This document shows positions 36,814 to 39,226 of a stretch of 64,000 nt of DNA, piece by piece. Below the pieces are notes generated by a model. It did no database searches and was not told where the DNA came from. It was given only the letters and a program-made list of their open reading frames with translations. How positions within the stretch are numbered: position 1 is the stretch's first letter; every line of letters starts with the position of its first letter. Source of the DNA: Clostridium sp. 26_21. Lineage in GTDB: Bacteria; Bacillota; Clostridia; TANB77; CAG-508. Both the position numbers and the translations under genes were made by a program. The stretch lies in contig MNRO01000017.1 in assembly GCA_001915995.1 (NCBI GenBank), forward strand, positions 73,402 through 137,401, written 5' to 3'.

Positions 36814-37362
36814 GTGAGAAAAATTAATTCAATACAAAAATGGATTCCAATAGAAAAAATTTTAGAAAAAGGAATTATAAAATTAAAGAAAAATAAATAT
36901 ATAAAAATCTTAAAAGTAAATCCAATAAATTTTAACTTAAAAACACAAATGGAAAAAGAATCGATTTTAAATTCATATAAAATATTTTTAAAAACATGTA
37001 ATTTTGATATTCAAATTTTAATTCAAAGTAAAAAAGAAGATTTAACAAATCATATTGAAAAAATAAAATTAAATTCCAAAAATGAAAACAATAAATTTAT
37101 AAATAATTATTTAAATGATTATATTAATTATATAAAAGAAAAAAACAATTTAAATAAATCGGCATCTAAAAATTTTTATTTAATTATAAAAAATAAAACA
37201 GAAAATAATGAAGAAAATATTATTCAAGAATTAAATGAAAAATATTTTAAAATAAAAGATAATTTATTAAGATGTGGAAATTTAATTTTTGAATGTGATA
37301 AAAATGAAATAAAAAAAATATTATTTTCTTTTTTTAACACAAAAATATTTTTAGAAAAATAA
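36814..37362 (+). CDS. VirB4/TcpF-family N-terminal domain protein (…IQKWIPIEKILEKGIIKLKKNKYIKILKVNPINFNLKTQMEKESILNSYKIFLK…). The start codon is uncertain: either the GTG embedded in GAGGTGA, or ATT 5 nt later.
   Basis: ORF track, 182 aa; matches the N-domain of Gram-positive VirB4 proteins and the 393-aa ORF of cluster A. Confidence 0.55.
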   Translation: MRKINSIQKWIPIEKILEKGIIKLKKNKYIKILKVNPINFNLKTQMEKESILNSYKIFLKTCNFDIQILIQSKKEDLTNHIEKIKLNSKNENNKFINNYLNDYINYIKEKNNLNKSASKNFYLIIKNKTENNEENIIQELNEKYFKIKDNLLRCGNLIFECDKNEIKKILFSFFNTKIFLEK

Positions 37363-37366
37363 AGAG

Positions 37367-39226
37367 GTGAAAAATATAAAAAACAAAAAAATAAATAATA
37401 ATAAAATTAAAAATAAATATTTAATAAATAATATATTTAATAAAATAAAAAAAGAAAAAAATAATAAAAAAATAAAAGAAGGTTTTTTTCAAGATAAAGA
37501 TTTTTTTTCTCCAACATATATTAATTTAAATAATCCAAAATATTTAGAAATCGATAATTATTTTTATTCAGGAATTATTATTACAAATTATTATAGAGAA
37601 AATAATGATTTAATTTTAAAGTCATTATTAGATACAAATATAAATATGAACATTTCTATTTTTTATGAAAAATGTGATACATCAAAAGTTATAAAAGAAT
37701 TAACATATAATATCGGAAATGTAGGGGCAGAGTTAAAACAATTTAATGATAATAGGCAAGACATAGATATTGCTGCATTCACTTATAATGATGCAAAATA
37801 TATAAGAAAAGAAATTCAGATTAATAATGAAGAAATGTATTTTTTATATATTTATTTAAATTTATTTTCAGAAGATAGAAAAGAATTAAAATATAATATT
37901 GAAAAAATTGAAGGTATTTTACAAAGCAGAGGATTACAAACAAGAAGAGCTACTTTTAGGGAAGAACAATTATTTATTTCGTGTTTACCATTACTGGAAA
38001 ATAAAAAAGAAATAAAAACAGTTGCTAAAAGAAATATTTTGACTTCAGGTTTAATTAGTACATATCCTTTTATCTCATCTTCAATATTTGATGAAAATGG
38101 AATTTATATTGGTGATAATATGTACAATAATTCATTAGTGCTAATAGATAGATATGATACAAATAAATATAAAAATGCTAATATGTGTATATTTGGAACA
38201 AGTGGAGCAGGCAAATCATTTTACACAAAATTAATTATTTTGCGTAATGTACTTCTTGGGATAGAACAATATGTAATTGACCCAGAAAGGGAATATCAAA
38301 GTTTAGCAAGGAATTTAGATAGCACAGTAATAAAACTTGGGCCAACATCTGAAAATTATATAAATGTTTTTGATATAAGAAAAGAAAGTATAGAAGAAAA
38401 TGAACACGGATACCTTGCAACAAAAATAGGAAAATTAATTGGATTTTTTAATTTAATTTTTGGAGAATTAAATGAAGAAGAAAAAGCAATATTAGAAGAA
38501 AAAATAATTCAAGTTTATAAAATAAAAAAAATTAATTTTAATGATAAATCTTTATATAATAAAAATAAAAAATTTAAATCCACGAAAGATATGCCAATAT
38601 TAGAAGATTTTTATAATATATTAAATGATGAAAAAACAAAAAAATTTAAAATAAAATTAATTCCATTTATAAAAGGATCATTAAAATTTTTTAATAATTA
38701 TACAAATATTGAATTAAATAAAAAATTAATTATTGCAGATGTTTATGAATTAGGTGAAGAAAATATGAAATTTGGAATGTATTTATTTGTTGAATTATTT
38801 TGGGATAAAATAAAAATAAATAGAAAAATAAAAAAAGCAATTTATTTAGATGAAATTTGGAGATTAATTGGAGTAACATCAAATAAAGATGTTGCAAAAT
38901 TTATTTATAAAATATTTAAAACAATTAGAAAATATGGTGGAAGTAGTGTAGCAATTACACAAGATATTTCAGATTTATTTAGTTTGGATAATGGAGCATA
39001 CGGAAAAAGTATTTTAAATAATTCAAGTATAAAAACATTTTTTTCATTAGAAGAAGAAAATATAAAATTATTATCACAATATTCAAATATTTCAGAAAAA
39101 GAAAAAATCGAAATAAAATCTTTAAGAAGAGGAGAGTGTTTAACATTTGTTGGAGATGAACATATTTTAATAAAAATTAATGCAAGTGATTTTGAAAAAA
39201 AAATAATTGAAGAAAAAAATAATTAA
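37367..39226 (+). CDS. VirB4/TraE/TcpF-family T4SS ATPase, ATPase-domain ORF. Walker A CIFGTSGAGKSFYTK, Walker B AIYLDEIWRL. It lies in the +1 frame relative to the N-domain ORF, 4 nt after its stop.
   Basis: ORF track, 619 aa; paralog of the ORF at 8777-10735. Confidence 0.7.
   Translation: MKNIKNKKINNNKIKNKYLINNIFNKIKKEKNNKKIKEGFFQDKDFFSPTYINLNNPKYLEIDNYFYSGIIITNYYRENNDLILKSLLDTNINMNISIFYEKCDTSKVIKELTYNIGNVGAELKQFNDNRQDIDIAAFTYNDAKYIRKEIQINNEEMYFLYIYLNLFSEDRKELKYNIEKIEGILQSRGLQTRRATFREEQLFISCLPLLENKKEIKTVAKRNILTSGLISTYPFISSSIFDENGIYIGDNMYNNSLVLIDRYDTNKYKNANMCIFGTSGAGKSFYTKLIILRNVLLGIEQYVIDPEREYQSLARNLDSTVIKLGPTSENYINVFDIRKESIEENEHGYLATKIGKLIGFFNLIFGELNEEEKAILEEKIIQVYKIKKINFNDKSLYNKNKKFKSTKDMPILEDFYNILNDEKTKKFKIKLIPFIKGSLKFFNNYTNIELNKKLIIADVYELGEENMKFGMYLFVELFWDKIKINRKIKKAIYLDEIWRLIGVTSNKDVAKFIYKIFKTIRKYGGSSVAITQDISDLFSLDNGAYGKSILNNSSIKTFFSLEEENIKLLSQYSNISEKEKIEIKSLRRGECLTFVGDEHILIKINASDFEKKIIEEKNN

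Follow-up and report, generated by a model that had tools for sequence, protein, structure and literature searches.

The small VirB4 N-terminal-domain protein and the separate motor protein encoded side by side between gyrB and gyrA in Clostridium sp. 26_21 are a real, conserved two-gene type IV secretion ATPase. We analyzed a stretch of 64,000 nucleotides (nt) around these genes (contig MNRO01000017.1, positions 73,402 to 137,401 of the forward strand; hereafter, the window, with positions counted from its first letter). The two open reading frames (ORFs), of 182 and 619 amino acids (aa) and here called N182 and A619 (together, pair B), probably represent separate functional genes for a two-piece VirB4-type ATPase that would serve as the second motor of a dispersed chromosomal secretion system; as part of the same reading, pair B belongs to the vertically inherited core genes of a lineage of uncultured gut Clostridia with small genomes and is neither recently inserted nor decaying. 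The window encodes another divided VirB4, consisting of N393 and A659 (pair A, within cluster A). An earlier note on this DNA had given the coordinates and lengths of the 182-aa and 619-aa ORFs accurately (Table 1), as well as the motif pairs by which their translations resemble those of pair A (IFGTSGAGKS/IFAKSGAGKS, PTSENYINVFDI/PTSKTIINLFDI, and DEIWRL/DEAWML). The A619 sequence is a 100% match to OKZ57262.1, from a human-gut metagenome-assembled genome (MAG).

The two members of pair B match consecutive parts of a single profile. Against the 752-position NCBIfam model of the CD1110 VirB4 family (NF045971; MPF_FATA type), N182 occupies positions 2 to 167 (37.3 bits) and A619 occupies positions 177 to 732 (291.8 bits); the match of A659 begins at position 172, such that pairs A and B are broken at one domain boundary, as the earlier note had proposed. 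The curated equivalog cutoff of this model (325 bits) is reached by neither A619 nor N182 singly, and only their summed scores would pass it. Pfam matches of A619 are to P-loop_TraG (E = 4e-18), AAA_10, and DUF87, and its first 40 residues are a low-complexity, lysine- and asparagine-rich segment. For N182, precomputed matches to PF26593 (TraC-like) exist for its 98 to 99% identical relatives and its orthologues; a local Pfam scan of N182 itself returned no match, perhaps because the scan library was without the PF26593 model. A sequence-based profile search of solved structures yielded one spurious coiled-coil match and nothing else.

Pairwise comparison aligns N182 with N393 at 29% identity (E = 1e-11) and A619 with A659 at 26% identity (E = 3e-40), and a profile of the N182 family matches residues 58 to 278 of N393 with an hhalign probability of 97.6% (E = 3.6e-12). 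Both small proteins are thus VirB4 N-domains, as the profile matches assign them and as the earlier note had supposed. Its description of the two pairs as clear paralogs holds insofar as their homology is far beyond chance; at 26 to 29% identity, though, they are distant homologues from different subclades, and a fused VirB4 (P0255), which shares 41% identity with A619 and 39% with N182, resembles pair B far more closely than pair A does. Hydropathy confirmed the one structural contrast drawn between the N-domains: N393 carries a transmembrane (TM) helix (Kyte-Doolittle 19-residue mean of 3.55 at residues 10 to 28), whereas N182 has none (0.68, with 75 orthologues ranging from 0.29 to 1.42).

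The separation of N-domain and motor is retained among relatives of the window. A scan of one genome per species recovered 80 loci, with ATPases 69 to 99% identical; an N-domain was detected at 76 of them, every time in an ORF separate from the ATPase, and the contigs of the remaining four end just upstream. These 76 loci, six loci with P0065 (a 78%-identical homologue), and the window make up a set of 83, in which the frame offset between the genes is 0, +1, and +2 in 21, 31, and 31 cases, respectively, and the N-domain stop codon stands 40 to 1202 nt (median, 133 nt) from the conserved core of the ATPase. At two loci (L030 and L026), the genes stand 1.1 kb and 0.6 kb apart, with no sizeable ORF between them.

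These observations bear on whether pair B might instead be a single VirB4 gene with a product of ~800 aa, interrupted in a poly(A) tract through faulty sequencing or assembly, or read by programmed +1 frameshifting. Within the window, several features would suit such a gene: the N182 stop codon (TAA, 37360 to 37362) is followed by four bases (AGAG) and then by GTG at 37367 in the +1 frame, as the earlier note described; the downstream frame is open from 37355; removing one A in GAAAAATAAAG would join the frames; and the downstream ORF of cluster A is likewise in the +1 frame [(11897 − 10756) mod 3 = 1]. Against this, independent assemblies share the stop, as do all 76 other species with a detected N-domain, the offsets take all three values, noncoding spacers extend to 1.1 kb, a Shine-Dalgarno (SD) sequence lies ahead of the ATPase frame, and there is no conserved slippery site or offset of the kind found in prfB or dnaX. 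The spread of offsets, the spacers, and the SD sequence of each ATPase gene therefore exclude both a sequencing error and a conserved frameshift site, and a broken or frameshifted single gene is scarcely credible for pair B. Because the offsets are spread over 0, 1, and 2, the +1 offset of pair B is coincidental. The earlier note was right that the layout does not reflect two sequencing errors, since the split is kept across species and is under selection; the shared mechanism that it had entertained as an alternative, if taken as frameshifting at the junction, fails on the varying offsets and spacings. Both sequencing error and programmed frameshifting are refuted for the lineage by a conserved split with variable offsets.

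Database relatives of N182, numbering 4866, give a similar picture. The best 120 of them (down to 75% identity) are 159 to 216 aa long, with one 306-aa outlier, and nearly all carry PF26593; among the 150 best cluster representatives (clustered at 50% identity), 149 are stand-alone proteins or fragments, and one is a fused VirB4 of 849 aa. For N393, the best 120 matches (down to 62% identity) are nearly all stand-alone proteins of ~400 aa, and all carry PF26593; the few shorter ones (296 to 345 aa) span only part of the query. A tblastn search of N182 against plasmids produced no match, probably due to the low-complexity filter.

The sequences flanking the junction point to separate translation of the two genes. 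The annotated GTG start of A619 (37367) falls within the SD sequence itself, and an in-frame ATA (37376) lies 7 nt downstream of GAGGT; N182 has the same pattern, with GAGGT at 36811 followed after 7 nt by ATT at 36823. ATA 37376, not the GTG within the SD sequence, is the probable start of A619, and ATT 36823 is the likelier start of N182, whose called GTG also falls within its SD sequence. SD-like motifs precede the ATPase frame at 81 of the 83 loci, and at 43 of them there is not a single ATG, GTG, or TTG codon from the upstream in-frame stop to the conserved region. The best SD sequence is followed by an in-frame ATA, ATT, or ATC at 64 of the 83 loci, with 7 nt being the commonest spacing (although the scoring of the start-site script favored that spacing). 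We infer that the ATPase gene is initiated independently, often at a weak, noncanonical start codon. In cluster A, A659 and N393 overlap by 41 nt, or by 20 nt when counted from a better-placed ATG at 10735, and a relative at 64% identity repeats the overlap (41 to 47 nt). Upstream of N182 is a promoter-like sequence that matches the consensus at 12 of 12 positions; the promoter scan as a whole returned 46 sites, compared with 49.7 expected by chance, and this single 12/12 site is alone noteworthy. Within positions 36690 to 36751, a motif of the form TGTCG...TTGTCGAA, or TGTCG(n)TTTGTCGAACGATTTTTCTTG, overlaps the −35 element of this promoter and is kept in four relatives (L001, L010, L011, and L013); it may be an operator for the XRE-family regulator encoded at 39983 to 40345. 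An Rfam scan of positions 36100 to 40900 found no match, and a repeat search of the gyrB-N182 spacer found weak AT-rich repeats at most.

Selection maintains both genes, which are inherited with the chromosome. None of the 77 ATPase orthologues compared departs from the Walker A motif (GTSGAGKS) or the Walker B DE. The median pairwise ratio of nonsynonymous to synonymous substitutions (dN/dS) is 0.12 for gyrB, compared with 0.22 for the ATPase, 0.41 for a neighboring protein of 231 to 242 aa, and 0.44 for the N-domain (these are NG86 values, rough in extremely AT-rich genes and used relative to gyrB only, but informative in their ranking). Wherever the contig extends far enough, gyrB lies upstream of the pair (all 66 loci); gyrA lies downstream at 58 loci, and both flank the pair at 53, with no counterexample to the order gyrB-pair-gyrA among loci with enough contig. 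The identity of the pair to its counterpart in the window tracks that of recF (Spearman coefficient, 0.55 to 0.57; P ~ 1e-6), which falls as low as 58% within the lineage. Its placement between gyrB and gyrA, together with this tracking of recF, marks the pair as a vertically inherited core feature.

We propose that each gene would be translated from its own ribosome-binding site and that N182 (a protein of the TrsD/TraD kind) and the A619 motor would assemble noncovalently into a VirB4-like unit. This reassembled unit would act as a second motor within a type IV secretion system that is chromosomal and distributed over three origin-flanking islands: island A would supply pilins, a VirB3-like protein, a TM-anchored split VirB4, and large membrane proteins; island B is the N182/A619 pair; and island C would supply a coupling protein and another pilin. 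Several observations weigh against this proposal. Pair B has no adjoining VirB3-like, pilin, or VirB6-like gene, and its cooperation with islands A and C is suggested by co-location only. A helix-turn-helix (HTH) regulator near the pair, and a ParA/MinD-like ATPase near it in relatives, are typical of the remains of mobile elements; evolution of the N-domain is fairly rapid (as judged by NG86, which is unreliable at 18 to 25% G+C); the neighboring gene for the conserved 231- to 242-aa protein is frameshifted in this species; and N182 scores just 22 bits against the TrsD model, whose cutoff is 200. The lack of adjacent membrane components, the presence in the insert of HTH and ParA-like genes (as in the conjugative element that carries P0255), the frameshifted neighbor, and the relatively high dN/dS of the N-domain would also fit a decaying remnant of an ancient conjugative element, integrated between gyrB and gyrA, standing outside any working secretion system, and kept either by accident or for a role that has nothing to do with secretion. 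Decay is nevertheless improbable: both ORFs are intact in ~75 species, though AT-rich sequence would quickly close a neutral frame; the catalytic motifs do not vary; dN/dS is well below 1; and a consensus promoter with a conserved upstream motif precedes the pair.

The functional two-piece motor that we favor could have arisen from a split shared with pair A or from a separate one. When 17 ATPase domains are placed in a neighbor-joining tree (564 columns, 100 bootstraps), pair A clusters with a split Pontibacillus protein (88%), and pair B clusters with the split proteins of L096 and L097 (100%). Sister to the clade of pair B is a group that contains the split L095 beside the fused P0255 (100%), plus a PrgI-fused Vescimonas protein, and the split clade of pGO1 and pIP501 has a fused protein of B. 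mycoides as its sister. Since fused and split forms are interleaved, fission or fusion has occurred at the linker more than once. It is possible, if somewhat doubtful, that pairs A and B were split independently by convergent gene fission at the same interdomain linker. Beyond the interleaving itself, such a history would be in keeping with P0255, L095, and the fused Vescimonas protein all being nearer to pair B than pair A is, and with the identities of P0255 to pair B (41% and 39%, versus 26% and 29% for pair A). On the other hand, the nearest sampled relatives of each pair are themselves split (Pontibacillus with A; L096 and L097 with B), just 1 of the 150 closest N-domain cluster representatives is a fused VirB4, and the tree needs two changes with a split ancestor but three with a fused one. 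This last margin is too thin to settle the ancestral state. The suggestion in the earlier note that the two-ORF organization is ancestral and functional holds for the most part: the organization is old, real, and selected, while a single split predating both pairs is only marginally favored.

The split architecture is already known from plasmids, in the form of TrsD/TraD with TrsE/TraE, where TrsD is a remote homologue of the VirB4 N terminus and marks the pGO1 subclass (PMC12102498). As in pair B, TrsD/TrsE of pGO1/pSK41 and TraD/TraE of pIP501/pRE25, of the MPF_FATA type, consist of an N-domain protein of ~200 to 230 aa directly before a DUF87/P-loop ATPase of 650 to 670 aa. The plasmid comparators are broken at the same point as pair B: pLW043 (pSK41/pGO1 type) encodes a 227-aa TrsD, followed after 14 nt by a 672-aa DUF87 ATPase, and pRE25 (pIP501 type) encodes proteins of 209 and 653 aa in the same order, with the alignment of TraE to A619 beginning at the same boundary; in plasmids of Carnobacterium and C. 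tyrobutyricum, ATPases of 656 and 670 aa follow a gene annotated as trsD, and a Pontibacillus plasmid carries an unannotated 274-aa ORF ahead of a 621-aa “CD1110 family” VirB4. Cluster A shares the gene order of the pGO1 subclass (pilin, VirB3-like, TrsD-like, VirB4). Pair B is nonetheless outside the TrsD subfamily proper: the ATPases of pGO1 and pIP501 form clades separate from it in the neighbor-joining tree (100% bootstrap) at 24 to 27% identity; N182 scores 22.3 bits (E = 9.4e-5) against the TrsD model NF041427, below its 200-bit cutoff; and hhalign pairs N182 with the TrsD of pLW043 at a probability of 70% (E = 4e-5). Unlike the plasmid systems, pair B is a chromosomal orphan with no adjoining relaxase, pilin, or VirB3-like gene.

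Also similar is the chromosomal system of the Patescibacteria, in which TrsD is the most abundant secretion-system component, is usually located beside virB4, and is essential in one cultured species; the system is usually without a relaxase and often near dnaA (PMC12102498). Points of likeness to the window are the TrsD homologue beside virB4, arrays of VirB2-like pilins, PrgI/VirB3- and VirB6-like proteins, the usual lack of a nearby relaxase, a location near dnaA and the origin, small genomes, and vertical inheritance. The window differs in belonging to another phylum, in having two split VirB4 pairs and a coupling protein distributed over three islands, and in placing one of these pairs between gyrB and gyrA.

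The CD1110 family of fused VirB4 proteins is the best profile match to both halves of pair B. In contrast to the pair, the fused P0255 (849 aa) is a single polypeptide encoded on a mobile element with a relaxase and MobC. Further genes of this element (positions 5426 to 19660 of L094, a Logan contig from SRR29457793) can be grouped by where their counterparts lie: those for a pilin and a coupling protein are matched in island C; those for an M23 peptidase and a 316-aa protein, in genes adjoining cluster A in a relative (L091); and those for an HTH regulator and ParA, in the gyrB-gyrA insert (the HTH gene in the window and the ParA/MinD-like gene in relatives). An element of this type, resembling as it does the gene set of the three islands, is a candidate for the kind of source from which the chromosomal system came. 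The Rickettsiales rvh system has duplicated components, VirB4 among them. It is a diderm, MPF_T-type system that differs from that of the window in having full-length VirB4 paralogues and no TrsD-like split. Like the system of the window, rvh is chromosomal, and it is scattered in several islands (PMC12102498). A literature search for type IV secretion in the present lineage, taken to be TANB77, retrieved nothing relevant. New here is an orphan core-genome pair that forms one of three secretion-system islands around the origin.

The window spans the replication origin, with a sign change of GC skew near 30 kb, and has the gene order dnaA, dnaN, recF, gyrB, a 4.7-kb insert, and gyrA (Table 1). 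In addition to pair B, the insert contains a 194-aa ORF, the XRE-type HTH gene on the opposite strand, and a 75-aa ORF. The XRE regulator was detected in the closer relatives (79 to 100% identity) and in two distant ones (L035 and L044, ~53%). The 231- to 242-aa protein, which is all helical, is always encoded directly upstream of gyrA; in the window, a single inserted C near 39369 to 39370 disrupts its gene, which reads as two ORFs (39207 to 39485 and 39382 to 39966), and a second assembly (L008) has the identical break. This protein has no Pfam domain and no significant fold match (best E, 0.15), and the AlphaFold 2 models of its 231-aa form are inconsistent with each other (predicted local distance difference test score, 78). 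Many relatives have, between the VirB4 ATPase gene and the 231-aa gene, a ParA/MinD-like ATPase gene (366 aa in L037, at 10050 to 11150, with CbiA/MipZ matches), which is absent from the window.

TABLE 1 Positions of pair B, its surroundings, and islands A and C in the window
Feature	Position	Strand	Remarks
Three paralogous polytopic membrane proteins, 823-980 aa	268..8679	-	Cluster A, downstream genes
A659, VirB4 ATPase	8777..10756	-	Cluster A; likelier start ATG 10735, 6 nt after AAGGAGG
N393: N-terminal TM helix, VirB4 N-domain (residues 58-278), charged tail	10716..11897	-	Cluster A
PrgI/VirB3-like 119-aa protein and three VirB2/TrbC-like pilins	11890..13627	-	Cluster A, upstream genes
gyrB	34222..36162	+	Upstream border of insert
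Promoter-like TTGACA-16-TATAAT, 12/12 matches	36724..36751	+	Upstream of N182
N182, stand-alone VirB4 N-terminal-domain protein, TrsD-like, soluble, without TM helix	36814..37362	+	
SD sequence AGAGGTG of ATPase gene	37363..37369	+	Directly after N182 stop codon
A619, VirB4 middle and C-terminal P-loop ATPase domains	37367..39226	+	
Helical protein before gyrA, lineage specific, conserved	39207..39966	+	231-242 aa in relatives
XRE-family HTH regulator	39983..40345	-	Pfam HTH_3, E = 3e-13; inside gyrB-gyrA insert
gyrA	40847..43294	+	Downstream border of insert
Island C: VirD4-like coupling protein (541 aa), T4SS pilin (110 aa), 290-aa protein	45801..48881	-	

Islands A and C are syntenic in relatives, and no secretion-system genes adjoin pair B: measured to the nearest genes, island A is ~23 kb from N182 and island C is 6.6 kb from A619. 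Island A occupies positions 268 to 13627 on the minus strand. Each of its tandem 823- to 980-aa proteins has an internal T4SS_pilin-like segment, low-complexity spacers rich in N and Q, and a conserved C-terminal domain; these proteins may be VirB6-like or surface-exposed, variable components. In the relative L091, island A comes directly after parAB and is followed by the M23 peptidase gene. In the window, island A is separated from an MBOAT/DHHW acyltransferase pair by genes for a LytTR DNA-binding protein and a membrane GGDEF diguanylate cyclase (14638 to 16358, minus strand); since island A directly follows parAB in the relative, these two genes were inserted in this species. In island C, the coupling protein has TrwB_AAD_bind and TraG-D_C domains and was seen in one relative, most of the fetched flanks stopping short of it, whereas many relatives have the 290-aa gene (~30 of them) and the pilin gene after dnaD/dnaI. 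A search confined to the window detected no relaxase domain among the 39 ORFs scanned, out of 55 of at least 100 aa.

Taken further, the lineage might have domesticated a monoderm conjugation machine, turning it into a core, origin-flanking system of three islands that serves a nonconjugative role and has two split VirB4 motors, one anchored (N393) and one soluble (N182), acting as inner and outer protomers of a VirB4 hexamer of dimers, as seen in R388. In that system, VirB4 N-domains link both protomers of each dimer and touch VirB3 and VirB8 (PMC12857230). We judge this scenario rather unlikely as a whole, and the specialization of the anchored and soluble pairs as inner and outer protomers is speculation. 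If the scenario were true, the nonconjugative role might lie, for example, in taking up DNA, in contact-dependent delivery, or in attaching to partner cells, and would parallel that of the Patescibacteria, and the conserved ATA and ATT start codons would hold the soluble motor at low dosage.

For annotation, pairs of this kind should be treated as two genes, a TrsD-like protein and a VirB4, and not as frameshifted pseudogenes. The window also offers a natural experiment on the VirB4 N-domain, which occurs here as a free protein in two versions, with and without a membrane anchor. In at least 53 species, a VirB4 pair has a fixed place between gyrB and gyrA, both of them essential, with two further islands beside it. 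This suggests that, like the Patescibacteria, a common group of uncultured gut Clostridia relies on type IV secretion by a chromosomal system.

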